Assembly: GCA_002269645.1 (NCBI GenBank)
Contig: NIVC01000732.1
Location: 1 to 64,000 of the forward strand
Source: Macrostomum lignano
Taxonomy: Eukaryota
Reading direction: 5' to 3'
Length of the DNA stretch: 64,000 nt
Part shown: positions 1 to 25,700 of the stretch, piece by piece
Layout of the letters: each line of letters begins with the position of its first letter
Position numbering within the stretch: position 1 is the stretch's first letter
Notes under the pieces: generated by a model
What the model saw: the letters and a program-made list of their open reading frames with translations, nothing else
The model's database searches: none
What the model was told of the DNA's origin: nothing
Translations under genes and position numbers: made by a program

Positions 1-102
1 CTAGTGAAGCAAAAGCAAATAATCCGCAAAATTTCTACACATAGAAGAGTGCGGATGCTAAAATACGGGTTTTATCAAATTCTCTACATTCTAATAAGCT
101 AG
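1..102 (+). CDS. 3' end of a small basic/hydrophobic element ORF (partial)
   Basis: Frame 1 is open from base 1 to TAG at 100-102: LVKQKQIIRKISTHRRVRMLKYGFYQILYILIS. A basic run followed by a hydrophobic tail, loosely like small core-type Polinton proteins. Confidence 0.3.
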   Translation, partial: LVKQKQIIRKISTHRRVRMLKYGFYQILYILIS

Positions 103-120
103 TGAAGAAAAAGAAACAAA

Positions 121-813
121 ATGAATAAGTTCTCAGAAATGGTTCTGATCCCCAAGTCAGAATACGACATGCTCACACAGAATTTGAAGCCAGTTGAGTC
201 TGAACTCGACACTGCTGTGAGATATGCGCAGAGGAAATGCAATGATATTTTGCTTGCCGAGGATTGCCCAGACGATGTGAAAGCTGCCATGTACCATGAT
301 GCGATGAAGAGTTTGCTGGCCAAGCGCAAGCGGACTGGAAAGGATGATGCGCGTACCTGCGAGTGATGCAAAGATGCTGAAAACTGATATTGCACCAAGC
401 AGCTGGGGGAAAAGATCACCCAATCCGTGCCGCAGAAGTTTAAAGCGAGAGCCCGCAGTCTATGGGCCATCCTATCTGGCAATCCTTCTCTGATTCGGGG
501 TGTCCGAAAATGGCGAGGCGCAAATTTGTGGGAAGACAATACCCTCCTCAAACATCCTGGATTTGTTTCACAGTGCCGTGAGGGATTCGAAATGTGCCAG
601 CGAGCCGGTGGCTGGAGTGAGTTTGTCTCATTGCTCCAAGATAAAAAGCTTAACATCCCAGCTTCGGCCATAGGAAAGTCAGTTAGGCAGCTAATTTCTA
701 AACCTGCTGTTTCTCCAGAGGCCGCCCCTGCTCATCATACAGTTAAAGGATTCGGGAGTGGGAGAGCTTGGCTACAGCTGAACAGGAAAAAACTATTTAA
801 GAAGGGGAACTGA
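121..813 (+). pseudogene. Conserved Polinton accessory protein, broken by several frameshifts
   Basis: Motifs joined across frames: EMVLIPKSEY..L, ILLAEDCPDDVKAAMY, VPQKFKARARSLWAIL, ENGEAQICGKTIPSSNILDL (alternate frame ~495-560) and GWSEFVSLLQDKKLNIPASAIG. This motif series is recalled from animal Polinton ORFs. Confidence 0.6.
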
Positions 814-853
814 GTCGGCTTCCCGATATCAGGCATCTTGAAACCATCCGATC

Positions 854-1350
854 ATGAACTATATTGACTTCCAAGGCTTCCCACGCGAGAGATCGAGCAG
901 AGATTTCGTTGTGAAGGAGCTAGCCATTGCCAAGTCCGGGCAGGCAGTTACCATATCACTCATCACGTGTACGCCTCTCCGTTCTCATGGGAGCGAATCT
1001 CACCTGAGATGCAGGTGCATTACAGAAAGCTCTCAAAGAATTTGCATCATTTCAAGTGGACAGATGGATCCCGATCGTACATGCATTTGGCAAATGACAT
1101 TCTAAACATTGCTTACGGCCCCACCTGGACAAGCGGGTGAAAAAGTCCATCTTTCTGACTGAGCTGCTTGGCAGACAGGTGTACAACCTAGAGGATCTGG
1201 GATCACCTTTGATTCAAGCATCTGATACTGGTTGTGCAGTGAAAAATGTATTGCTCTACTACAACTGGCTGAAGCCAAAGTTCTGTATCAACTTAAGAAG
1301 CGAGGTGTGCCCGCACCACTCAAAGGCTCTCAAAGACAGCACCACTGACA
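854..1350 (+). pseudogene. DEDD/RNase H-fold-like Polinton accessory protein, frameshifted
   Basis: YIDFQGF...FVVKELAI, then a shift to HVYASPFSWERI...LHHFKWTDGSRSY, then a shift to FLTELLGRQVYNLEDLGSP...CAVKNVLLYYNWL. Frameshifts at ~940 and ~1135. The 3' end is approximate. Confidence 0.55.
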
Positions 1351-1365
1351 GAAAGGACTCTCTAA

Positions 1366-1932
1366 ATGAGTACACCTGCGACAGCCCTGCGAGTGACCAA
1401 TCTGGTTGGCGGCGTGGATCTGAGGCTGGCTGGAGGCAGGGGTGCCCAGTTGCCTCTGCGGGAACTGGCTCTCAGCATGGCTCATGTCATCTATCGCCCC
1501 GTCTGGCCCCGAGTGCTCATCAAGAGGATGCGGAATCCCAGAGTGACTCTGTTGCTCTATCCGACTGGACAACTGAGTATCTGTGGCGCCCGGAGCTACT
1601 CGGCCTCAGTCAAGGCTGCCCGTCGCTTCGTGGCTATGCTGCATCGCAGAGTTCCGCCTCAACTGCTGCCTCGTCAATCCGTTTGTGTCCGAATTAAGAC
1701 TATTACTGCTTATGGAAAAATAGACTTGCCCAAGGCTCTATCACTAAGAAACCTCTGTGAAGTGCTACCGAATGCGAAATATGAACCTGAAAGTTTTACT
1801 GCTTTAGTTTGTCAGCTTCAATACTGCAAGTGTACGCTTTTTCACAATGGCTCATTTGTGCTCAGCGGAGCAAAGTCTAAGCATATGCTACAATCAGACC
1901 GTTCCCTATTAGCTTGCTTGCTTTCAAACTGA
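1366..1932 (+). CDS. Divergent TATA-box-binding protein (TBP)-like protein, 188 aa, intronless
   Basis: Two TBP repeats. Repeat 1: VTNLVG..LRELAL..YRPVWP..MRNPRVTLLLYPTGQLSICGAR (TBP: [41 protein letters not shown]). Repeat 2: IKTITA..YEPESFTAL..TLFHNGSFVLSGAKS (TBP: IQNMVG..YEPELFPGL..LIFVSGKVVLTGAK). A at -3 of the ATG; AATAAA signals at ~1935-1955. Confidence 0.85.
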   Translation: MSTPATALRVTNLVGGVDLRLAGGRGAQLPLRELALSMAHVIYRPVWPRVLIKRMRNPRVTLLLYPTGQLSICGARSYSASVKAARRFVAMLHRRVPPQLLPRQSVCVRIKTITAYGKIDLPKALSLRNLCEVLPNAKYEPESFTALVCQLQYCKCTLFHNGSFVLSGAKSKHMLQSDRSLLACLLSN

Positions 1933-2492
1933 AATAAATAAAAAGAAAGAATAAATCGCGGCTTGTTTAATTAAAATATTCAAATTAATTCTCTCTCATG
2001 CACTAGCTTTTTTGTCTTCATTTTTAATTGCAATGAAAAACCAGTGGTGAACATCTTGTAGAGATAAACAAATAGCAAGCTAAAAGCAAATACGAGCAAG
2101 CAGATAAACCACTACAAAAATAGGAAAAAATAGTCCAAAAGCAGATGGAATATATTAAAACTTATAAAGCAATATCAGGATTCAAAAAACCAACCACAAA
2201 GTACAGGTAAAATTAGAAAAAAATAAAACTCTCACATGCCATCACCGCAAACACCACCACCACCACTAACGAAGCATTGGTTTCATTATCATCATCGCGC
2301 AATTGTAAGTAAATATTGTGAAGCAAAAAATTGTTGCTAGCCTCAGCAGATGATCAAAGTTTTTATTGCATTTGGAAAAAATCCTATTTAGATTAGCGGT
2401 TAACCTTTATTCAATGTCAAAGAAAGAAACTTTGAAATCGCAAAGAAATTATTGTTTTTGTTTAGCAAGCTTGTTGTACTCATTATTCAATT

Positions 2493-2538
2493 TCAAAGTA
2501 GTCGGCGCCGTTTTGATGATTTCTGCTGCTGTTGCTGC

Positions 2539-2569
<31 letters not shown>

Positions 2570-2580
2570 GCTGCTGTTGC

Positions 2581-2649
<69 letters not shown>

Positions 2650-5600
2650 AGCAGCCGAATGTGACCAAATGGGAGACTATAGTTAGGGCTCAGCCAAGCG
2701 CGCTTGTCTTCCCAAATGCTTAAGGCACACTTCCGCTGCTGCAAAGTGTACAGTCGGTGATGGATGCTGGCAATACGATGAACAACGACAGAATGGCTGC
2801 AGAGCTCATTGAACACCCTTAGGTAGTCACTGTGAGCCAGCTCTTTCTTAACAATGCATCCTTGAACTCCTTTGGCCTTCTTCTTTTCCGCGGCTTGGCT
2901 ACTCGCCTTGAATGAGTAAAGCTTCGGCCTTAGGAGCAGCCACTCCTCAAAGCGAGCACCGGCTGCTTCATCCTTAATGCAGCCAAGTCGCGCTTTTAAA
3001 TCATTCGAGAATAGCGCGTGCTCTTGAGGATAGTTTGAAGTGTCGAGCAGCTGCTTCGACTTCAACAGCGGTAGAACTTTAGACTGAACGCTCATGTTGC
3101 TGATTGAGAGAAAGAAAGAATCGGTATCACCACCGCATAGCTTGATGACACCTCCATCGTTCTCTATCCAGGGCTTCAGTTTGTCGTAAAACAGCTCGTA
3201 CATAATCATTTTCGAAAAGTCTAGGACGCATTGCCCGATAAAAATAGGCCGATCGAGCTTTAATTTTGTCTTTTGCAGTTCCAAAACGCTTAGTGAATCA
3301 GTAATTATGATAAAATTGGTAATTGTCGGCTTGGCAAGCAGTACCTTTACCTTTTCCACGTTGGTGCAGACTCGAATATCACGCCGCTTTCGCACATTCT
3401 CCATAGTTTTGCCGAATAGCGCGTTATTCTTTAACTTGTAGAAATCCTTTTCGAAGTTGGTTTTCGCTGCAGCCCGCTTCTGGCTATTTTTCTCGACGTA
3501 GGCAGCAAAGAGAGGCTCTTGGTGAAACTCAATCATGCGATTGATGCGTCTAACCCGCATTCCATGGTTCAGGTAGAACGCCAAAATAGAGGAATGAACC
3601 ACATAGGAAGGCTTATCGTGACAAGTGAGCATCAGCTTCTCTGTCGGATGATAGGTGGAGTTCTCCGTACCGACCTTTTCCCACAGCTGCTGCATGTATT
3701 CAGGAAATTCCCTGAAATTAGGGGCAGCCTTTTCCGGCGCAAATGGCAGGTCTTCGGTGGTTTCGTGAATCTCTGGGGGATACTCAAGGTCAACATCAAA
3801 GAGGTAGGCGAGTGGATCGGTTAGCTTGAGTCCTCGAATGCGATCTTCAGTCCACAAAAGCAGCTCATCATCGTCCAGCCAACGGAATCCTCCGACTGGT
3901 AAGTTCATAGTGAGCGCCTGTCCATACAGGTTGTTTGCATCCACAGCAAGAAGCTCGGTGAGCCAGCATGAATAGTAGGAGTGCCACCATCAACATCCTC
4001 ATTGCTGTCAACACCAGTGCTGGCGCCCGCTGCTGAGGTAGCCTGCACTTTGTGGATGTTAACAAACGACATGCCGCCGCGAATGCCGCGCTCAAACAGC
4101 GAATACATCTGCGCATCTGTTAGCAGTTCAATCCCTGACTTGATGGATTTCAATGCCGAAGCGAATGATAGGCCTGGTGTCGAAATAAAATGGACTGGAT
4201 CAAGGCCATCCTCTTGCATGCTGATCTTGCGAAAATTTTCAAAAATATCAGCCAACTGCCTGATGTCGAGCTCGAGGTAGCACAGCATGTACTCTTTTAG
4301 ATTTGAAACCTGAAATTCTCGCCAGGCGCGTTGAGCATGCTCATAGTCAGAGTTGGTGCAGTGGCTCTTAGTCAGAGCATTGTAGAAGCTCTCTTGGCTG
4401 GGAAGCACGGCATCCTTCAGCACGTCTGAATTTTTAAGATAGTCATACGGGAAAACTCCCTTGCTGAAAAGCACTTCGGATGATAGCAGTGGGAATCTGC
4501 TGCTGCGTAGGCGACTAGTGATACGACATTCAGCCTCTGGTAAATTTTTGATGAGCTGTGAGAGGCTGGCATTAAGAAATTGATTCGAATCAATGAACTG
4601 AATAGTAAAATTTAAAGGCTTGATCTTGCCCTCACTCTCATACTCGCCGATTTTAAATTCGATTTTCATCGACAGAAACTGCTCTGGATTCAGAGGGATG
4701 ACGGAGATTTTCCAACCCTCCATCAGACCCAAAGCGGATGACATCATGAGATGGAGATCGTACCCCTTGAAATTGTGGAACACGACGGGAAGGAAAGACC
4801 TCTTTAGTCTGGCCTTCATATTACAATCAGCACACGCAGCTCCCCGAAATTCTCCGCTGAGGTGGTCGTGATCCCAATGTTTATTGGACCCTTCCGTGAA
4901 TTCGCTTCTACAATAGCAGCAAGCTGTGGCTTCTCTGAACTGTCGCCCTGCCATCTCTGTTCTTATCGCTGCTTGTCGACTGAACTCCGTGTTCCAGCCG
5001 TAAACTTCACGAGCGAGCTTCTCCAGCGATTGCAGGAAATCGGAAATGCACTTATTAGGATCGTCGCTGACAAAAGTGCTCACTTTATCATCCGCTCCTC
5101 TGGGCGCTAGACCAGTCATCCCTTCTCTGTGCAGCACGATGTAGCCAGCAGCAACAGCAATGTGCTCAGTTAACTTCTTCGTTGCTATACCAGCAATCGA
5201 ATCTTCTTGGCATGGAGCATTCAATGCTTCGAAGTCGGCGTAAACAACAAATGGCGGACTAATTGTTTTTTCCCATGATGAGAATCGGAGAATATTATTC
5301 CTTTCATCCGGCAACTCTTCCTTTACGTTGATCACTCCAGGTTGACAAGGAGCTCGGCTGTGTTCTTCAAAGGCTGCATCACTATGAAAGGGCAGCAAGC
5401 AGCGCTCACACCACTTCCGCCGATGCAGAGCTGCCTTGCTATTAAGAAGCCTGTTGATGCTTGAAACAGCACACCAATGACCCGAGGCCTCGTCTTCTGA
5501 TGGTGGAATAAATAAGAGTAGAACAACTTCTCGATCTTTAATTGTAGCTGCAGTAGGCAAGCGGAGGACTTGAGCGCTCTCTTTCTCCCAGATGAAAACC

Positions 5601-6805
5601 GTGAAGCAAAGTCTCGGGTTCAGTCTCTCAACAATGGAAAGGTCGGTGACATTGATTGGCAAGTCAATTCCACTCATGTTAAGTTCATCCAGCCAGTCAG
5701 TGTAGGAAGACTCGCGTTGCGCTGATTTCTTTATTTTGTTGTCTTCCTTGTGCAGAAAAGCAAGGCATGCGTAAAGAAAGCAATTTACACCATTGCTTGG
5801 AGGACAAATAACCGCCTTCTTCCGAAGAAGTGGAGTCGGTAGAATAAATTCCGCAGCATGCCCCGTGTAGTAGGAAACTCGTTCGACGAGAGCTGAGTAA
5901 AGTTCAAAAAAATTGATTTTTTCAATTATCCAGCCACTACCGTTGGTGTTGTAGACATCGACTTTGCGCTCCAGCTCTGTAAACTGCTGTCTCCACCAAT
6001 CATCAAACTCCTGTATATCTACCACCAATCCGAGTTGTGTGCTCATCCATTTATCCTCCCCCTTGACAGCTTCTGACGCCTGCACTCTGACCATGCGCAA
6101 ATTCAGTTTGATCTGAGCTTTAACAGAGCAATTATCCGAAGAGTCGAAGCGAATTTCAAGACACTGCTGCACTGCGATTTTGCAGAAATCGAGAAACTCG
6201 AATGTTTCAGTGGCAGCTCCAGGTGTAAATCGATGAACTTGAAGAACATCTTCGTGAGCGCTGGTTTTTAACGCCAGGGTGAATGAAGGTCCTACAATTG
6301 AAGAAGGGAAGATAGTATTAAAAAATATTTATGGAAAGTGGAAATGATGAGAAATGTCTCTGGGAGTTATGGAAGTCGAATATTTTATTGCCCTTTTTTA
6401 CACTTACGAGTATACTATTTATCCTACTACCTTATATCTAGATTTAATATTTTTTTATTAATCAATACGAGCTACGTATAAGTGTAAAAAAATAATTTGA
6501 AGAGTTATTATTGAAGAAATAGATGGAGTTCTGCTTTCGCATTTTTGTCAATTCATCTAATGAGGAATAAAAATGTCTCATTATTGTGAGTTCTCCGGCT
6601 TAATCCTGTTGGGAACCATTTGGGAATTGTTGTGTAGGCGAGAAAAATATAAATAATTCCGTTGCTAAGAGACAGGAATGCAACAAACAGAAATGCATGA
6701 GTTCATAAAACCAGCAATGGAATGAAAAAACTTACCACTCGGTCCAAATTCGTGGCTGACAGCTGGGTCCACCGGCTCGTCCTCTCGACTCGATGGGGTG
6801 GCCAT
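2493..6805 (-). CDS. polB: Protein-primed family B DNA polymerase (pPolB), ~1290 aa. Exon 1 6805-6736, exon 2 from 6291; single frameshift at ~3945-3960
   Basis: C2H2-like CERC..EEH; ExoI YADFE; endonuclease VII-like DHDHLSGEFRGAACADCN; ExoII HNFKGYD; ExoIII YLELD; Pol motifs DANNLYG, KLKNNALFGK, GGDTDS, RPKLY, KAKGV. The frame stays open upstream of 6172 to a splice acceptor at 6292. Confidence 0.93.
2522..2650 (-). repeat. CAG/CAA microsatellite encoding a ~40-residue polyQ at the pPolB C-terminus
   Basis: (GCT)n/(GTT)n on the plus strand; the ORF ends RLL-polyQ-KSSKRRRLL. Confidence 0.95.
6292..6735 (-). other. Predicted 444-nt spliceosomal intron in pPolB
   Basis: Donor G|GTAAGT at 6735; pyrimidine tract plus TTGTAG| acceptor at 6292. 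Phase 1 join: MATPSSREDEPVDPAVSHEFGPS-G|GA-PSFTLALK, in frame with the 755-aa ORF. Confidence 0.75.
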
Positions 6806-7493: not shown

Positions 7494-8852
7494 TTAAGAG
7501 CTACTTAAGCGAATGCGAGTTCCTCCCCCAAGGTCAATAAAATACTCGCCCTCGACTCTGCTCGGTAGTACCAGCTGAATGCAGACTGACGGTGGCATCG
7601 GTGGCATGGCTTCTACGACTGGGATGTCACCGGTTTGGATTTCTGGTGCAGCCGGTGGAGTAGGAGGTTCGAATTCTCGCAGGAGATCGGATAGGCTTGC
7701 TTCTGCCATCATTCTGGCTTGCTCCATATTTTTTCCTGCGACTGGAACAGGCCTGTAGGGTGGCATCTGTTGCTGCTCAGCTTCTTCATTTGCCAGCTCA
7801 ACAGGCTCCAAATCGACATCCTCGAAGAAGGCAGTATCCAACTCCGAAGGAGCTGCAAAACCAGTGGAATCGTCAGCTGGGAGGCCGGCATCAGCAGTTG
7901 GAAGGCCGGCACTGTCAGCTGGGAGGCCGGCATCAGTAGTTGGAAGGCCGGCACCGTCAGCTGGGAGGCCGGCATCAGTAGTTGGAAGGCCGGCACCGTC
8001 AGCTGGGAGGCCAGCATCAGTAGTTGGAAGGCCGGCACCGTCAGCTGGGAGGCCGGCATCAGTAGTTGGAAGGCCGGCACCGTCAGCTGGGAGGCCAGCA
8101 TCAGTAGTTGGAAGGCCGGCACCGTCAGCTGGGAGGCCAGCATCAGTAGTTGGAAGGCCGGCACCGTCAGCTGGGAGGCCGGCATCAGTAGTTGGAAGGC
8201 CGGCACCGTCAGCTGGGAGGCCGGCATCAGTAGTTGGAAGGCCGGCACCGTCAGCTGGGAGGCCGGCATCAGTAGTTGGAAGGCCGGCACCGTCAGCTGG
8301 GAGGCCGGCATCAGTAGTTGGAAGGCCGGCACCGTCAGCTGGGAGGCCGGCATCAGTAGTTGGAAGGCCGGCACCGTCAGCTGGGAGGCCGGCATCAGCA
8401 GCTGGCGCAGCGGTTGAACCAAAAAAATCTGATTGCTGCTCCACAGCGGCAAGTGCAGCGGCAAGCAGATCAAAGTTTGCATCGGTAGCGTGCTGAAAAT
8501 CTTCATCAGGCTGCTGAAAGACGCCCTGAATTGTCTGGCTGAGTGCGCTGACCGGTGCTCGACTGCGCTCGATAATGTTGAGCTGCTCTTGACGCTGGGC
8601 AGCCTCCAAGGCAGCAAAGCGGGCTCGTTTTAAATCTCCAGGTGAGCTCCAGTTAATAATAATGTGGTTTTTGTGAGCTCGAACTTGCTGGCGCACATTA
8701 AAGAGCTCACGCGTCTGGCACTCGTGGCAAAGCAGCCAGCGACTGACATTGCAGCTGCTTTTCATTTTGTGACGTTTTAAGCCACCGAGCTCACATGAGT
8801 TGCAGGAAATGCATACCTCGTACACATATGAAGGGCAGCGCGATTTATTCAT
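7494..8852 (-). CDS. 452-aa terminal element protein: Cys-rich N-terminus, 14-aa repeat array, acidic/Pro-rich C-terminus
   Basis: Intact ORF with CISCNSC and LLCHEC motifs, (DAGLPADGAGLPTT) x~12, then FFEDVDLEPVELANEEAE. TATA box upstream. Confidence 0.7.
   Translation of the reverse strand: MNKSRCPSYVYEVCISCNSCELGGLKRHKMKSSCNVSRWLLCHECQTRELFNVRQQVRAHKNHIIINWSSPGDLKRARFAALEAAQRQEQLNIIERSRAPVSALSQTIQGVFQQPDEDFQHATDANFDLLAAALAAVEQQSDFFGSTAAPAADAGLPADGAGLPTTDAGLPADGAGLPTTDAGLPADGAGLPTTDAGLPADGAGLPTTDAGLPADGAGLPTTDAGLPADGAGLPTTDAGLPADGAGLPTTDAGLPADGAGLPTTDAGLPADGAGLPTTDAGLPADGAGLPTTDAGLPADGAGLPTTDAGLPADSAGLPTADAGLPADDSTGFAAPSELDTAFFEDVDLEPVELANEEAEQQQMPPYRPVPVAGKNMEQARMMAEASLSDLLREFEPPTPPAAPEIQTGDIPVVEAMPPMPPSVCIQLVLPSRVEGEYFIDLGGGTRIRLSSS
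7875..8400. repeat. 42-bp coding minisatellite (~12.5 copies, 21-bp sub-repeat)
   Basis: Unit GGCACCGTCAGCTGGGAGGCCGGCATCAGTAGTTGGAAGGCC. Confidence 0.95.
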
Positions 8853-8946: not shown

Positions 8947-8954
8947 CTTATATA
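8947..8954 (-). promoter_or_regulatory. TATA box candidate for the 452-aa ORF
   Basis: TATATAAG on the minus strand, ~95 nt upstream of the ATG at 8852. Confidence 0.5.
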
Positions 8955-9499: not shown

Positions 9500-9789
9500 G
9501 AAGCAAAGCATTGCCTGGTTTTATGAACCGAACCGCCTGTGTCCGTCGTAGCAGAACACGCATTTGCCAATACTCATTCATTGCGGTTAACGGAATTCCC
9601 GCGGAGCCCCACCCCATTCGCAAATACTTGCACCAATGTACTCTCACTAGGAGGTCTCACGGAATTTCCATGGCCTGCCCTGCGGCAGAGTCGCTCAATG
9701 GATTTACATAGGCCCGTATGTTCACTCACTAGGGCCCATGGCTTTTCCACGGAAATTCCTGCGGCAGAGTTCTGTTATCCCATACTACT
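9500..9789. repeat. Candidate right terminal inverted repeat of the Polinton
   Basis: GC-richer block with internal repeats (CTCACTAGG, CACGGAA, CCTGCGGCAGAGT, each twice) ending in ACTACT. The partner TIR is not in the window and the inner boundary is unknown. Confidence 0.55.
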
Positions 9790-10901
9790 AGTGTAGATAC
9801 CCTTGAGCGAGTGCTCAACATGTACTTTTAGATCTCTTATTACTATTACTAGTTTATTAACTTTTAACTTGCGTTTTTCAATACGTTTCACGGCGTTATC
9901 AATAGGAATTCTATAGAAAATTTGGAGCAATATGATGGCAATTTAGATAAGCAAGCTTGACCAACTTTAACTCTTGCTCTTACAAATTATATACAATGTG
10001 TATGTATTGTCTGTATAGACTAAGCACTATAGGCCTTCTAAACACTGTCGGATCGGACACTTTCTGTAATTTCATCCGTTTTTGCAGCCATGTTGATTCG
10101 ACTGGAAAATTTCCAGGAAATTGACGTAGAAAATTTCCAGGAAATTGCGCATCTGAAATTTCCTGGAAATTGGAGTAGGAATTCTTTTAGGCTTTCGAAG
10201 AAAGTGCGCATCTGAAATTTCCTGGAAATTTTCGAGTGAAAAAAGAAAAAGAAATGACTACAATGCACTATGCAAGGTTGCACTGGTAGAGATAGGTAGC
10301 CTGTAGCAAAAAGACAGTTCGTGTACACTGCCCAGTTCCAGACTTGCAAACTTTCCCACCCTTTGCGCACTCGTATTGGCCTACAAGGCAGCGATAGACA
10401 GTCAGACAATCTCACGCCCACCCTCTGCGACAGCGTCAAACTTTAAGGTTCTGTTCTCTGAAAAATCATGTGATGTTTGGTAGAACTTCATAGTCCTCGT
10501 TGTACAAACTTTCATATGCTATTATACTACTTAGTTGCCTCAGCAGTAGCGTATGTACATGTATGCAGAAATACTTTCATAACAAGCTTGAAACAACTCA
10601 ATTGTTCCAACCCCGCTCCTCTTCTCCTCCGTTGTCAGGGTAAACAACCTGAAATCCCAGAGGTGATCCTCGGCTGAGCAGGCCCGGCGGTGGCGGTGCC
10701 GGTAGTCGTGCTTTTTGTGCGGAGTCTGGCAAAAGAAAACAAACACAAAACTTCTCTACTTAACTTCCTGATGTCAGTCGAAACACAGAATCACCACAAC
10801 CTGCATCGTCGCTGCTGTTCAACATCGCCTCCGTCCGGCGCCCATCAGGATGGAGGAGCCGACGGTGATTTCGAATTGCGACTGTCATTGGTCAGATTTG
10901 A

Positions 10902-11528
10902 ATGCCAGATAAGATCGTTGTAGCAATCAGCAACAACTTTAGTTTTCTAATGGAACTGAGAAACGCACGCAACGGCGGCGGCGTACCGGCCGCTGTGCAG
11001 CGTCGAAGTTACGAGAACAATGTCACCTGGTTTCAGTTCATTCTCGATAGTCAAGAGGACGGTCGTCTGGTGCCAAAGCGGCAGCAGCAACAGCGGCATG
11101 TGACTGTTTGGCACGTGTGGCAAGCGAACACTGTCGTTGGAAAGGAACCGGAGTCGGAAACATCAGGCTGGAGTTACACCGTCCGTCTGCCGAGGAAGTC
11201 GCCAGATTCGATCGGGACTGAGGCAGTCATCGAAGATGTGTTCGGCATGGCTTTTAAGATCGAAAGCTCGACGGATTACCAACAGTTTTTGAGCAGTTAC
11301 CATCGGATTGAGTGCCAGGTGACTGGAGCATCGTCGGTTCCTATCGGAGGATCGCCAAGTATTTATAAAACACTTGTTGAAGTTGGCGACGCCGCTTCAG
11401 ACCAGCTGGACGCGGTGCGCATCCGGGAGGTGCTGAATGATGTACACCTGTTCCAGTCGGGGCAGGTGGACATTGCGAACAACGCGACAGATGGAGTGCC
11501 GTCTTCTGCGCTGTTGATTGAGTACTGA
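10902..11528 (+). CDS. 208-aa protein, copy 1; possible PH-fold/REC114-like
   Basis: Intact ORF, duplicated at 17145. TWFQFILDSQEDGRLV, HVWQANTVVG, FGMAFKIES and IREVLND resemble REC114 motifs recalled from memory. The function call is weak (about 0.35); the ORF itself is well supported. Confidence 0.7.
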   Translation: MPDKIVVAISNNFSFLMELRNARNGGGVPAAVQRRSYENNVTWFQFILDSQEDGRLVPKRQQQQRHVTVWHVWQANTVVGKEPESETSGWSYTVRLPRKSPDSIGTEAVIEDVFGMAFKIESSTDYQQFLSSYHRIECQVTGASSVPIGGSPSIYKTLVEVGDAASDQLDAVRIREVLNDVHLFQSGQVDIANNATDGVPSSALLIEY

Positions 11529-17144: not shown

Positions 17145-17771
17145 ATGCCAGATAAGATCGTTGTAGCAATCAGCAACAGCTTTAGTTTTCTAATGGAACT
17201 GAAAAAGGAACGCAACGGCGGCGGCGTACCGGCCGCTGTGCAGCGTCGAAGTTACGAGAACAATGTCACCTGGTTCCAGTTCATTCTCGATAGTCAAGAG
17301 GACGGTCGTCTGGTGCCAAAGCGGCAGCAGCAACAGCGGCACGTGACTGTTTGGCACGTGTGGCAAGCGAACACTGTCGTTGGAAAGGAACCGGAGTCGG
17401 AAACATCAGACCGGAGTTACACCGTCCGTCTGCCGAGGAAGTCGCCAGATTCGATCGGGACTGAGGCAGTTATCGAGGATGTGTTCGGCATGGCTTTTAA
17501 GATCGAAAGCTCGACGGATTACCAGCAGTTTTTGAGCAGTTACCATCGAATCGAGTGCCAGGTGACTGGAGCATCGTCGGTTCCTATCGGAGGATCGCCA
17601 AGTATCTATAAAACACTTGTTGAAGTTGGCGACGCCGCTTCAGACCAGCTGGACGTGGTGCACATCCGGGAGGTGCTGAATGATGTACACCTGTTCCAGT
17701 CGGGGCAGGTGGACATTGCGAACAACGCGACAGATGGAGTGCCGTCTTCTGCGCTGTTGATTGAGTACTGA
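17145..17771 (+). CDS. 208-aa protein, copy 2; possible PH-fold/REC114-like
   Basis: Intact ORF with 8 amino-acid differences from copy 1 (counted by eye). Confidence 0.7.
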   Translation: MPDKIVVAISNSFSFLMELKKERNGGGVPAAVQRRSYENNVTWFQFILDSQEDGRLVPKRQQQQRHVTVWHVWQANTVVGKEPESETSDRSYTVRLPRKSPDSIGTEAVIEDVFGMAFKIESSTDYQQFLSSYHRIECQVTGASSVPIGGSPSIYKTLVEVGDAASDQLDVVHIREVLNDVHLFQSGQVDIANNATDGVPSSALLIEY

Positions 17772-19560: not shown

Positions 19561-20816
19561 TCACTGCAAAGGCGGGCAGTCCTGGTGCAGGAAATTCCTC
19601 GGCTGGATGACACCCTTCTGTCGTTCCACGTCGCTAGCCAGGTGAGTGAGGGCTGCCTCGGCCACCTCGGGATCGGCCTCTTGGTTGAGGCTGTACAGGT
19701 ACAGGTAGAGCCGTTTCCAGGTGTCGAAATTCATTCGAGCCGGGCCGCCCTCCGGATCGGCTGTGAGCTGCTCGCAGATCAGCTTCATCGTGTCTGTCAG
19801 GTCGCCGCAGAGCGAGGCGCAAGCAACAGAGAAAAACTTCAGCCATTCCACTTTGCCTGTGAAGTCGCCAACCTTTGGGTTGGGAAACGGATAGAGTGCA
19901 TTTCATAGTTGGGCGGATCGGGAAGTAGCATTGTTGGATCTAGATATAATTATTATTGCGCCTGATTATCTAATTGGAATTGCGCCTGATAATCTAATTG
20001 TAATTGCGCCTGATAATCTAATTGTAATTGCGCCTGATAATCTAATTGTAATTGCGCCTGATTATCTAATTGTAATTGCGCCTGATTATCTAATTGGAAT
20101 TGCGCCTGATTATCTAATTGGAATTGCGCCTGATTCTTTAATTAGCTCGTATATAATTGGCTTGATCAACTACATGCAATTGGAATTGCACCTGATTATC
20201 TAATTGGAATTGCGCTTCGGTATCTAATTATAATTGCGCTTAATTATCTAATTTTAATTGCACTTGGTAATTTAGTTGGACTTACGATAGAAAGTTTTTA
20301 ATTGTGTAACATTAGTATTAGAGAAATGTGTCACCATCAATCAGGAATGTGCTTTTGTCTAGCAGGAAGGCTCAGTGTGAAAGAACTTAATTAATAATCT
20401 AAAAAGAATGCATGGTGCATGGCTGAACTATCTAATCTAACAGAACCAACCTGCAGCAGCTCCTGAAGCCGCTCTGACGGCAAATTGATTGCCCGCCATT
20501 TTTCGGCAATTTCGTCCGCCTCGACCTGCTTCTTCGGGCCCAGCTGTTTATTCAATACTCGCAACAGACCAGGCGTCAGTCCCGAGTCAGTCTTTTGGGT
20601 CGCCACCGCCATCTCAAGTCGCTCCTTCACTGGCGGCGTCTCGGCGTTGGCAATTGCTCGAAAATAGGCGGCAGACCACTGAAGCACGTCCTGCGGCTGC
20701 GTGCGAATGGCCGATTTGGTGTACTGCTTTAGCACGTCGGGTAGGCTGGGGGGAATCTGGATCTGCTCAGAGCAGTAGTACGGATCCTCTGGGTCTTCCT
20801 TTTTGTCGCGGGTCAT
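19561..20816 (-). CDS. ROPN1L: Ropporin-1-like protein (RIIa domain), 225 aa; exons 20816-20451 and 19872-19561
   Basis: YCSEQIQIPPSLPDVLKQYTKSAIRTQPQDVLQWSAAYF (RIIa/ropporin signature), VEWLKF and LTADPEGGPAR. GT-AG phase 0 join LLQ|VGDF. Confidence 0.93.
19950..20260. repeat. 24-bp minisatellite in the ROPN1L intron
   Basis: (ATTGCGCCTGATTATCTAATTGGA)n. Confidence 0.9.
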
Positions 20817-22717
20817 ATTGACAGATTATTTTGGCTGAAATAATAACAATTATTACAGATATTATTACAGTATTAACAATATTATTACAGAGCTGGTATC
20901 CAGAGAGGTATTTCCAGTTCTATTTTAAGATGAAGGCAATCTGAAGAGTGAAGATCCTGTTTCGCAAGGTTCCAAACGGATGAGGTTCCAGACGACGGTG
21001 AAAGAGTTTCTCTTTGGGCTTGCAGCGATCGAGGAGCCTACCTTATGCCCCATTTGCCATTAAAAAATTGTAGACAATTTCCAATTAAGCGAGGTGCTAC
21101 AAAGTAAATAACCGTACCCTTAATTTGATTCAAATACTTAAGATACGAATAATTATAGCTGTCGAGCTTTAGTAAAAATTCGATTTATTGTCATGCTTAC
21201 AAATTGCAGCACATTATCCAAATTTCCTAATTCTGTTTCTGTATAAGAAATAGCCATACACATAACACATATTTAAAACGAAAAACCAATGCAGTTGCAG
21301 TAAGTTAATTAATCTATTCGATGAAAATTAGTCTCTGAGAAAGCAAGCTCAACATAATAATTAAGCTTTCACCCTAAATATGTAAATAGAATCAACAATC
21401 AACGAGTCTTTCAATTAAAAACATAACTTGTTCTTAAGAAAATAACGTATAGCTTGAATTTTCAAGTGAGAAACGCATGAAATGAAATCAAGATAAATTA
21501 TTTTATTTTTATTTATTAAAAGCTTAAAACAGAAAAAGGTGCCTACTAAAACTGTTAGTTATTATTAAGCTTACCCTAGTTCGATTTAAAAAGCAAAATT
21601 TATATAGTTCCTTATGTAAAGAAAGTAGTCCTTGCTGTTAGTATTGGCGCTGTCGCATGCAAAAAAATCGAATTTAATACCAAAGTCGAAAAATTAGGTA
21701 ACCAATGTTGCTATAATAGTGCATAAGTAAATATTATGTTTAATTTTTATTCCACAAACTTTTGCTTATTTTTTGTAACTATATTACTATAGTATCTGAT
21801 TTTTGTGTCTTTGACAAAGGTTTTCTTATACTGCATATCTATGAACTCTAAAAAATAGGCGGTAAATCAAGCTTCTTTGATCTCAAGAATATTTTTATTG
21901 CAACAGCACCACGCAATACAAATCGAACTTATCCGAGCCTTCTTTCAATGTTTTAGCTTTAAGCAACAAGCAGCAGCTAAAATTATTGTAGAAATCTCAT
22001 ATAAAATTATAAACTTACGTATATTTGTAGTTCTCCACTTTTACACTATTGCATTGCTTTTTTATTGCTTGAAAACATGAAAACCTGAAATTTGTTGTGA
22101 ATATTTTTACGTCACAGTTGTGTTGAAGTGTTGCAAAGAAATACAAAAAAATAGTTCGAATGCTTTGTTATATAAAATGTGTCTGTCATTCTTTAATGCA
22201 ACAATTGTATTAAAAATTTAGTTAAATTTGCAACCTTAACCTTAACATCTTAAAGATTACCATTTGTGGTAATGTACCCATTATAAAGATTAATGTTTTT
22301 TTATTATATAGGATTATTAGCCATTAATGGTCCAAACCCTGAATACTTTTCTGTGTTTTAATCTGTGCTACATACTACATTAGATACTTTAGCATAAAGG
22401 ATTATACCAATAAACTCCTAATAGTATTAGTATGATAACATCCAATGATAAATTACTTTTCTCAAGGAAAATATCAATGATAATTAAATATCATATTTAA
22501 AAAAAATTCTCTTTGAATGTCTTAATTTTTAGGCAGAGCAAAATGTAGAGTTAAGATTTTTTAAAATTTAAGTGCATTATAATTTACATTATAATAAATA
22601 TAGTATTTTGTATCACAATTATGCATGATCAAGTCATCACCTAAATCTACTTTAACAACACTTGCATTTAGACTATTAAGTGTCGCATCGAGTCGAGTTT
22701 CACTACTAAAAGTAGTC

Positions 22718-25700
22718 ATGACCAAGCGCAAGGCGGCAGCAACCGCAGCAGCAGCAGGGTTATCGCAGCCAACCCGAGCTAAAAGTGCTCGCACTGCGGC
22801 AGCTAACAAAGCATCGACTTCATCAAAATTGCCGCCGAATTTCGAATGGACTCAAGCTGGCGGATTAGCCAAGCCCGGCGTACCGCACATGTTCGTGATG
22901 TCGTCTTCAACCGCCGCGGCGGCGAAAAAGTGCGCCGTATTCGACATTGACTGGTGCCTCATCAAGCCCAAGTCTGGTGGAAAATGGCCAAAGAATGCCA
23001 CCGATTGGTGCTGGCTGTTTGACTCTGTGCCGGATAAGCTGAGGCAATTGCACTCAGACGGCTATCGGCTGCTGTTCATCTCCAATCAGTCGGGCTTTGA
23101 GAAGGGCACCACCAGTCCCAAAGAGATTATGCAGAAATGCGAATTGGTTATTAGCGAGCTGGGCGTTGCTGCTGATGTCATTCTGATTGGCTCAGTCAGT
23201 CATTTTCGTAAGCCCGACATTGGCGCCTGGGAGTTCTTCGTGAGGGACTGCAACGGCGGCGTTGAGGTGAGCGAATGCTAGTGTGGGACAGGGAGTGTGG
23301 GACAGGGAGAGTGTGGGACAGGGAGAGTGTGGGACAGGGACTGTGGGACAGGGAGAGTGGGACAGGGAGAGTGTGGGACAGGCAGTGTGTGGGACAGGAA
23401 ATCTGGGACAATTAATTCCCGAGCAACCCCCTCTCTAAACTCGAACCCAACTCCCCCAGTTCGACCAGTCATCCAGTTTCTTTGTCGGCGACGCGGCCGG
23501 CCGCCCAGCCAGCGGGTCGCGCAAGAAGGATTTCTCCTGCTCCGACCGGATGTTCGCTGCCAACATCGGCCTGCCGTTTAGTACGCCGGAAGAATTCTTT
23601 CTAGACGAGCCGAAGTCCGAGTTCGATTGGGGCGCACCGAGTCCGCAGAGTTTGCTGGACGCGGCAGCGAGCTGCAGCCTACCGGGGGTGAGTCTGTTAA
23701 TCCGGATTATCTCAACATTAATAATGTCCCCGCCTGGAGTAACTCTAAATAAGAAATATTCCCACCTGGATTATCCCTAAATTAAAAACATCCCCACCTG
23801 GATTACTCCTACTTTAAAAATATCTCCACCTGGATTATCTCTAAATTAGAAATATCCCCACCTGGATTATCTCTAAATTAGAAATATCCAATCTGGATTA
23901 TCTCTATATTAGAAATATCCCCACCTGGATTATCCCTAAATTAGAAATATCCAATCTGGATTATCTCTAGATTAGAAATATCCCCACCTGGATAATTTCT
24001 CAATTATAAATACCCCACCTGGATTATCTCTAAATTAGAAATATCCCCACCTGGATAATCTCTTAATTAGAAATACCCCCACCTGGATTATCTCTAAATT
24101 ACAAATACCCCCACCTGGATTATCTCTCAATTAGAAATATCCCCACCTGGATTATCCCTAAATTAGAAATATCCCCACCTTGATAATCTCTCAATTAGAA
24201 ATACCCCCACCTGGATTATCTCTAAATTAGAAATACCCCCACCTGGATTATCTCTCAATTAGAAATATCCCCACCTGGATTATCCCTAAATTAGAAATAT
24301 CCCCACCTTGATAATCTCTCAATTTGAAATATCCCCACCTGGATTATCCCTAAATTAGAAATATCCCCACCTGGATAATCTCTCAATTAGAAATACCCCC
24401 ACCTGGATTATCTCTAAATTAGAAATATCCCCACCTGGATTATCTCTAAATTAGAAATATCCCCACCTGGATTATCTCTACATAAATAATCGCCAATCTC
24501 CCCTACTCAATCAAGAACCTGTTGTCAAGCAATCAACCGGAGCTGCTGCTGACCGTAGGCGCCCCAGCCTGCGGCAAGTCCAGCCTGGCTGAGCGCGTGT
24601 TCGTGGGCGAGCAGGGCTACTCCAGGGCCAACAGGGACCTGTTGAAAACGCCGGCCGCATGCCTGAGACTGGCCGAGGAGGCGATTAAGAGCGGCAAGTC
24701 GGTCATTGTGGACAACACTAATCCGTCTAGGCAGGATCGGGCCCAGTACCTGGAGCTGGCTAAGAGGCTTAAGGTGTGCGCACTGCTAATTATCTTAATG
24801 ATCCTAACAAATTTTCCTAATTTTCCACGACGATTAGATCCCCAAATTATTCCAACATATCCCAACGATTAGATCCCAAATAATCAAAATTTTCTCCCAA
24901 ATTTTAGATCCTAAATTATCCCATTTTTTTCCAAATGTTAGACCCTAAATAATCCCAATTTCTTCCAAATATTCGATTCGATCCTAAATAATCCCAGTTT
25001 CTTCCAAATATTAGACCTTAAATTATCCCAGTTTCTTCCAAATATTAGACTCGAAATTATCCCAGTTTCTTCCAAATATTAGACTCGAAGTTATTCCAGT
25101 TTCTTCCAAATATTGGATCCTAAATTATCCCAATTTCTTCCAAATATTGGATCCTAAATGATCCCAATTTCTTCCAAATATTGGATCCTAAATGATCCCA
25201 ATTTCTTGCAAATATTAAATCCTAAATTATCCCAACTTCTACCAAATATCAGATACCAATTTCTTCTATAAGCGCTAGATCCTAAATTATCCCAAATTCT
25301 TCTAAATATTAGATCCCGAAATATCTCAATTTCTCCCAAATATTCGATCCTAAATTATCCCAATTTCTACCAAATATTAAATCCTAAATTATCCCAATTT
25401 CTACCAAATATTAAATCCTAAATTATCCCAATTTCTCCCAAATATTAGATCACAAATTATCCCAAATTTCCCAGGACCAGATCCTAAATCAATGAGCAGA
25501 CAATGATAACCGATCAGGGATTCCTTCATCACGATAGTAACTCATTTATCCCAGGTGCCAGCCCGCTGCCTGGTAATGACAACAGACAAGGCCCTGGCCG
25601 AGCATCTGAACATGTTTCGCCAAAGCCAGACGGCCAGCAAAGTGCGCCGGGTGCCCCTGGTTGCCTACCGGATGTACTACAGCAAGTACTCAGAGCCCAC

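Follow-up and report, generated by a model that had tools for sequence, protein, structure and literature searches.

TBP and TFIIB are a textbook pair, and viral relatives of TBP have been described in several settings. In beta- and gammaherpesviruses, the TBP-like factor vTBP (ORF24, BcRF1, UL87) acts with host Pol II on a variant TATA box (TATT) that marks a distinct gene class; according to the available text of PMC7498053, vTBP is a large protein that contacts the Pol II CTD directly and depends on five further viral activators. The TBPs of large DNA viruses (Nucleocytoviricota, mirusviruses) share the TBP fold, and, as far as the available text of PMC7221094 describes them, most vary at the stirrup residues E186 and E188, often losing these glutamates, and come with a TFIIB of their own. 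These two residues make the signature contacts to TFIIB and Brf (PMC7221094). A TBP-like gene is also listed, as 'TBP', in the Fig. 5 legend of Starrett et al. 2021 (PMC8502044; preprint 10.1101/697771), among viruses with an adintovirus-like PolB. This MELD virus TBP belongs to a mid-size linear dsDNA element, as does the gene described below, but in the available text it appears as a legend abbreviation only, with no selection, residue or promoter analysis, and one supplement of that paper has 0 matches to TBP. The original prediction for the present locus, that no TBP was known from Polintons, was therefore too strong.

Polintons, or Mavericks (adintoviruses), are defined by features that include their termini and a 6-bp target-site duplication, and neither TBP nor a PC4-like gene is among the eight core genes given in the available text of PMC8097293. 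Integrated Polintons have no RNA polymerase, and the timing of their capsid and integrase genes is the question addressed here. Promoters or TBP are not discussed in the animal-Polinton literature that we searched: by term search, there is no TBP or TATA in the available text of PMC11071296, PMC10748475, PMC11131425, PMC11161782, PMC11296320, PMC8097293 and 10.64898/2026.06.19.733378. A Polinton TBP with a promoter box, a Macrostomum Polinton TBP, or a promoter box on Polintons of the kind described below was likewise not found in the literature searched, with RepBase, subscription papers and the supplementary virus list of PMC7221094 outside its scope.

Here, we have analysed a window of 64,000 nucleotides from Macrostomum lignano (contig NIVC01000732.1, positions 1 to 64,000) and show that the ORF at 1366..1932 on the + strand encodes a true two-lobed TBP. 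As was predicted, the ORF is intact and intronless, with 188 residues and both TBP repeats. Pfam TBP (PF00352) matches it in two stretches (E=1.3e-22, 79.8 bits against a curated cut-off of 22.9), and 35 of the 39 PDB sequence matches at E<=1 are TBPs or TBP fusions. The AlphaFold2 model has a pLDDT of 95.9, from a 107-row alignment in which 93 rows are non-element TBPs, which favours a TBP fold. In Foldseek searches the model has the saddle fold and fits cellular TBPs (TM ~0.8-0.85; 0.83, E~1e-13) better than the viral TBPs of BFVD (TM 0.5-0.75, best 0.75). The protein is far from the host paralogues in sequence, with 26% identity to host TBP and 22% to host TRF2. All named proteins close to it come from M. 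lignano. Its core begins at about residue 9, so that there is no N-terminal extension, and the N-terminal Pol II CTD-binding domain of the vTBP type is absent. Unlike vTBP, whose function has been shown, the element protein consists of the core only, with the TFIIB stirrup retained, and its function is proposed here. Since the host TBP core is itself intronless, the lack of introns in the element TBP is uninformative.

We number residues as in yeast TBP by offset from the host TBP, and for most of them the yeast numbers are our assumption. The register was set by a profile-profile alignment of 15 element-type and 26 other TBPs, which is ungapped through the first stirrup. In this register, yeast R98 corresponds to Trp47, F99 to Pro48, F116 to Tyr65, F190 to Phe144 and F207 to Phe159. 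The four DNA-intercalating phenylalanines (yeast 99, 116, 190 and 207) thus read Pro, Tyr, Phe and Phe, three of four being aromatic, in place of the canonical four-Phe set. Four intercalating aromatics had been predicted; Tyr65, Phe144 and Phe159 stand, but Trp47, the candidate for F99, was rejected because the ungapped register puts it at R98 and Pro48 at F99. The loss of F99 may weaken DNA bending. The symmetric Asn69/Asn159 and Thr124/Thr215 of canonical TBP are Asn/Thr and Cys/Ser in the element TBP. The YEPE stirrup is retained and the second QN asparagine is Thr112, both as foreseen.

Across element-type proteins, N69, V71, E186, E188, F190 and F207 are kept in 11 of 11 sequences, points of likeness to the cellular TBP and TRF2/TLF group, and F116Y, V122S/T, T124C, Q158K, N159T, V161T/S, P191S/T/N and V203K are fixed in all 11. 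In these alignments the element TBP retains both TFIIB-binding glutamates, whereas its DNA-facing residues are rewired. We take V122 to face box positions 5-6 and P191 to restrict box position 1. V203 is one of the three TBPm3 altered-specificity substitutions of yeast TBP and concerns box position 2 (PMC1636458); our numbering agrees with I194, V203 and L205 as named there. A Phe-to-Tyr change at a universal aromatic position is reported to alter TATA binding (PMC7221094), and this position would map to F116/F207. The losses differ from those of TRF2, as had been claimed: host TRF2 lacks F116 and F190, whereas the element protein keeps F190 and F207, with Tyr at 116 and Pro at 99, and it does not group with host TRF2 in our quick trees. 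The helix-2 basic patch (yeast R137/K138/K145), a surface bound by TAF1, Mot1, TFIIA and Brf (PMC7221094), is kept in the element family of the window (family A) and partly lost in a second family (family B, with E/Q at R137). No TFIIB-family match was found among the element ORFs scanned.

The TBP gene sits inside a Polinton of ~16 kb (~16.1 kb). As the window starts inside the element, the left arm was taken from a second contig (L032), which overlaps window 1-6622 at 99.1-99.8% identity. Its gene order is PC4-like, rve integrase with a chromodomain, putative minor capsid, small basic ORF, putative major capsid, adenain-type protease, P-loop ATPase, orf140, orf235, accessory ORF and TBP, converging on the protein-primed DNA polymerase B (pPolB) and orf476. 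That the TBP gene lies between two accessory ORFs and a converging pPolB, inside the element, was borne out by tblastn, the inverted repeats and the target-site duplication. The right terminal inverted repeat (9658..9789, 132 bp) is 97% identical to the left end in L032 and ends in (ACT)2, and it is followed by the 6-bp duplication AGTGTA (9790..9795), identical to the 6 bp preceding the left end. Terminal inverted repeats, (AGT)2 ends and a 6-bp target duplication are found in both families; pPolB and the rve integrase of the element are further Polinton hallmarks.

On the + strand, upstream of the TBP gene, are orf235 (106..810), identified by tblastn with its L032 homologue, and an accessory ORF (854..1697) that continues in the -1 frame across TBP codons 1-110. 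orf235 has no Pfam family, and its family-B homologue is 34% identical (E=1e-12). The accessory ORF, without a Pfam or NCBIfam match, is labelled 'EXO' for what we take to be a likeness to DEDD exonucleases. Directly after the TBP stop codon, three AATAAA hexamers (1933..1955, + strand) likely mark the end of the rightward transcription unit. On the - strand, pPolB (2493..6431; Pfam DNA_pol_B_2 E=4e-9, tblastn) carries an EndoVII-like Zn motif, with a long poly-Q tract at its end (window 2514-2659), and an orf476-like accessory ORF (7494..8852) contains a 39-bp tandem repeat (window 7880-8400) that varies among subfamilies. The frames of orf235, the accessory ORF and pPolB (the latter near 3905-3960 and near 6320) are broken in the window; these breaks are absent from the overlapping contig, where pPolB is a single open frame, and so may be assembly errors.

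The remaining genes of the left arm are identified with differing confidence. The protease matches Peptidase_C5 above the cut-off (E=4e-5), and the ATPase has a P-loop only, with a faint Pox_A32 match. The putative jelly-roll capsid proteins have no Pfam, NCBIfam or PDB match, and a shallow fold gave a pLDDT of 33; the labels major and minor are our assumption from gene order and size. The PC4-like gene of L032 falls below the Pfam cut-off (E=8.5e-5), and one subfamily copy lies above it. This PC4/Sub1-like gene is present in both families, at the left end in A (L032:2629-3354) and at the right end in B (L045:8174-8866), and in both it is preceded by an AT-rich or canonical TATA box. It may encode another transcription cofactor or, alternatively, a replication protein that binds single-stranded DNA.

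The element TBP (P0001) has at least 151 matches in the genome, 7 of them identical and full-length, the count being a lower bound in that 150 of 228 candidates were scored; they form subfamilies at about 98, 86, 84, 77, 75 and 69% identity. Since host TBP and host TRF2 are each found at 3 loci, real insertion numbers may be up to threefold lower. The accessory ORF lies on the same strand within 900 nt upstream in 108 of the best 111 listed matches. All 30 fetched loci have the upstream ORFs, and 28 of the 30 have pPolB within 1.5 kb downstream. In family B, a second Polinton family, the TBP is 36% identical to P0001 and the gene order is the same; among the matches listed, 21 of the best 30 have a capsid match within 6 kb. 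TBP is found in nearly all detected copies of the two families, and is fixed cargo of the element, not a one-off retrocopy. By comparison, 20 capsid loci of distant Polinton families (34-36% identity; e.g. C2158, C297, C84:1077352) have no TBP within 25 kb among the 141 listed matches tested, and it seems from these matches that some Polintons of this genome are without the gene.

One family-B copy of ~11 kb, read as a single copy (L045:7123-10000 and L046:1-8128), has the same termini and a CATTGG duplication; its ends are intact, only two remnants of pPolB are present, and it is probably non-autonomous for replication. At four other loci (C2930:3032-4108, C2941, C4807 and C3017), a single frame of 362-391 aa joins the accessory ORF and part of TBP, as in the database protein P0007; these could be indel errors or real fusions.

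The element TBP is under purifying selection. Over the whole gene, dN/dS is 0.14-0.32 between representatives of five subfamilies. In the part of the C-lobe free of any second ORF (codons 112-172), all 10 pairs, which are not independent, have a higher pS than pN (p<=1.4e-4). A low dS in the N-lobe was rejected as a sign of stronger selection, for a second ORF covers this region, which is also to the left of a recombination point. The -1 frame of the accessory ORF is open over the first 110 TBP codons in five of five family-A subfamilies (window 1365-1697) and over 129 codons in family B (L045:9503-9888). The chance of its staying open under synonymous resampling is about 0.02 (A) and 0.001 (B), and the overlap thus looks maintained. 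Comparing L001:1800 with L011, L014 and L030, subfamily DNA identity falls from ~97% to ~65% between the lobes, near TBP codon 100; the N-lobe stays linked to the capsid arm, the C-lobe to the pPolB arm. This pattern points to module swaps that would fall within the TBP gene. None of the sequencing runs on record as RNA contain the stretch, and the 14 runs that do are only guessed to be RNA; contigs from four of four such runs, with no DNA run for comparison, span the TBP ORF, and two of them end at 1987 and 2000, which we give no weight as evidence of expression.

In quick trees (SH-aLRT only), host TBP and TRF2 fall outside the single group made up by the element-type proteins (SH-aLRT 88-89); this group also takes in unnamed Logan, ENA and JGI proteins at 31-72% identity. 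Another 39 unnamed TBPs (163-200 aa) cluster in a separate clade, with Thr (one Ser) at N159 and Thr/Ser at V161. These proteins (P0030, P0088, P0092, P0098, P0165-P0199) are encoded on contigs of up to 22 kb, from metagenomes and Logan, and possibly belong to other Polintons. One branch (support 85) parts this clade and the element group from the cellular rows, tentatively, since the branches are long. An archaeal origin, suggested by best phmmer hits to archaeal TBP, was rejected because the trees, in which we assigned the 'archaeal' row labels ourselves, do not support it. A metagenome scan gave 14 loci at 23-39% identity, with no element genes found beside them by tblastn; IMG/VR scans for the context of the element TBP gave no match, and the ESM Atlas returned generic TBP clusters only.

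Upstream of genes of the element is a variant TATA-like box, which was first noticed when the 110 nt upstream of each start codon were printed. In the window, a candidate variant TATA box, CTTAAGAA, lies at 1292..1299 (+ strand), 74 nt 5' of the TBP start codon; a TTTAAGAA box lies at 796..803 (+ strand), 58 nt 5' of the accessory ORF; and a canonical TATA box, TATATAAG, lies at 8947..8954 (- strand), 102 nt 5' of orf476. L032 has five copies of CTTAAGAA against 0.49 expected, a number reached in none of 200 shuffles. They stand 42, 46, 58, 52 and 74 nt 5' of the integrase, minor capsid, ATPase, orf140 and TBP genes, all five within 30-80 nt of a gene start (p~2e-6, for a distance window chosen post hoc). 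CTTAAGAA is the top-ranked 8-mer in four of four family-A left arms, with 20 sense copies to 1 antisense. Flanking host DNA has 7 copies in 120.5 kb, and over the whole window CTTAAGAA is not enriched (4 observed against 3.6 expected). The related TTTAAGAA and CCTAAGAA are found in L032 at 58, 149 and 104 nt 5' of the accessory ORF, the small ORF and the major capsid gene. Of the nine sense xxTAAGAA sites in L032 one, ATTAAGAA, lies 736 nt from the nearest start, and the protease and orf235 genes have no clear box upstream there. The integrase box is in non-coding DNA and is retained in three subfamilies with differing flanks.

In family B, the consensus box is Y[AT]TAAGAA: CATAAGAA, CTTAAGAA, TATAAGAA or CATAAGAG lies 35-140 nt 5' of seven equivalent genes, with one additional ATTAAGAA and no antisense box. 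The top 7-mer is ATAAGAA, and the top 8-mer is unrelated. The box is retained at equivalent genes in families A and B despite protein identities of 36-54%, and its constant feature in both is G at position 6. A hybrid, TATATAAGAA, stands 5' of the accessory ORF in one subfamily. The canonical TATATAAG precedes the PC4-like gene in two of three subfamilies examined and orf476 in three of four, and TATAAAAG precedes the family-B TBP gene. By sequence, and not by timing, the genes thus fall into two promoter classes, and a variant TATA box marks a distinct gene class as in the herpesvirus system. The smallest box-to-start distance is 35 nt and out-of-frame ATGs stand 7-20 nt past several boxes, which would fit initiation ~30 nt downstream; a single such ATG 40 nt past a box (L043) goes against this.

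To our reading, the element carries a real, selected TBP variant together with a candidate cognate box, and what is new is that this strand-specific box stands upstream of integrase, capsid-module, ATPase and, in family A, TBP genes. That most integrase and capsid-module genes stand behind a common box suggests that the element could activate itself through host Pol II. We lean towards the view that an element-specific TBP reads the variant box and borrows host TFIIB and Pol II, as in the herpesvirus vTBP-TATT system. Host TBP/TFIID would transcribe the genes with canonical boxes (PC4-like, orf476 and family-B TBP), presumably at an early time. The element TBP would then bind the 8-bp box, CTTAAGAA in A and Y[AT]TAAGAA in B, and its retained stirrup glutamates could recruit host TFIIB and Pol II to start ~30 nt downstream. 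The integrase, both putative capsid genes, the ATPase and the accessory genes would thereby be switched on, and in family A, where the TBP gene is itself behind the box, positive feedback could result. Two boxes at 104-149 nt from a start, the lack of a clear box at the protease and orf235 genes, and the ATTAAGAA site far from any start sit less easily with this model, and the integrase is not obviously a 'late' gene. The original suggestion of a dedicated basal factor for the element's own promoters, or of a decoy, gains for its first part a candidate target in the TAAGAA box; its decoy and Pol III branches are less favoured. The grounds named for rejecting it have all fallen away, given the TBP fold, the presence of the gene in nearly all copies detected, the purifying selection and a position outside host TBP and TRF2.

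The variant box may nevertheless be independent of the TBP. Host TBP, TRF2 or some other host factor could read it as a weak TATA variant, with the element TBP a decoy or competitor that titrates TFIIB, NC2, Mot1 or TAF1, or a repressor of canonical-TATA genes. Single G(-26) and T(-30) TATA variants have been crystallised with wild-type TBP, judging by PDB titles, and TATAAGAA of family B is one base off canonical TATA, so host TBP may suffice; moreover, although wild-type TBP did not select G at position 6, its cavity can take G (PMC1636458). The invariant TFIIB stirrup, the basic patch retained in family A and the lost F99 would also suit a decoy. We consider this reading unlikely, for a decoy would have no need of identical substitutions on the DNA face in both families, whose TBPs share 36% identity; in family B the basic patch is gone, yet the DNA-face changes and the box are retained; and the family-A box departs from TATAWAWR at three positions. 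That the TBP is a neutral host retrocopy, captured once by the window copy, has next to no probability left: the gene is intronless and divergent, but its 150 or more matches in two families, dN/dS, C-lobe pS>pN and a clade apart from host TBP and TRF2 already refute it.

TAAG is found in every box, mostly in the form [ATG]TAAG known as a late motif of baculoviruses (PMC13483298). The core could instead serve the polymerase of a large DNA helper virus (baculovirus- or nudivirus-like) as a late promoter, much as virophages borrow giant-virus promoters, with a separate role for the TBP. A bracovirus late motif is placed 20-30 bp ahead of the start site (PMC13483298), and downstream initiation is possible there too. 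Baculovirus transcription starts within a few nt of TAAG, however, and out-of-frame ATGs follow the element boxes at +7 to +20; the conserved stretch is 8 bp long (Y-W-TAAG-AA), as large as a TBP footprint; and the element carries its integrase, pPolB and TBP itself. A search for LEF-8 of an integrated helper virus gave no match, and since its control matched nowhere either, this carries no weight. We judge the helper-virus reading rather improbable. Slightly less credence still goes to the proposal that binding of element DNA by the TBP-fold protein serves some other end (Pol III via Brf, replication or packaging) and that another element protein, such as the PC4-like product or an unannotated ORF, reads the box. 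Brf1 and Brf2 use the same glutamate (PMC7221094), several element ORFs have no family, and the C-lobe is exchanged along with the pPolB arm; against this, the boxed genes are long protein-coding ORFs ending at AATAAA, which fits Pol II, and the box resembles a TATA variant at TATA distance.

If the favoured reading, a TBP that recognises its own box, is true, the element would hold a natural altered-specificity TBP, far simpler than the herpesvirus late complex, and Polintons would keep a viral gene-expression cascade. A tentative but quite conceivable extension is that animal Polintons run a two-stage, virus-like programme in which a single protein is the switch: a minimal TBP, rewired on its DNA face, would recognise a TATA variant of its own and engage host TFIIB. 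Different lineages would carry different TBP/box pairs, with the ~40 unnamed short N159T TBPs as further members. Orthogonal TBP-promoter pairs would then exist as a natural library, and it would be explained how an integrated virus without a polymerase activates its capsid genes. The question is testable in a laboratory flatworm, with one protein and one 8-mer. Copies of the gene number more than 150, as against 3 host TBP loci, which also raises the matter of effects on host transcription.

Outside the element, the window contains a near-identical pair of 208-aa ORFs (10902-11528 and 17145-17771) without a Pfam match. It also contains exons of two host genes: one at 20391-20816 (- strand) for a RIIa-domain protein that we take to be ropporin-like, and one at 22625-23281 (+ strand) for polynucleotide kinase 3'-phosphatase.
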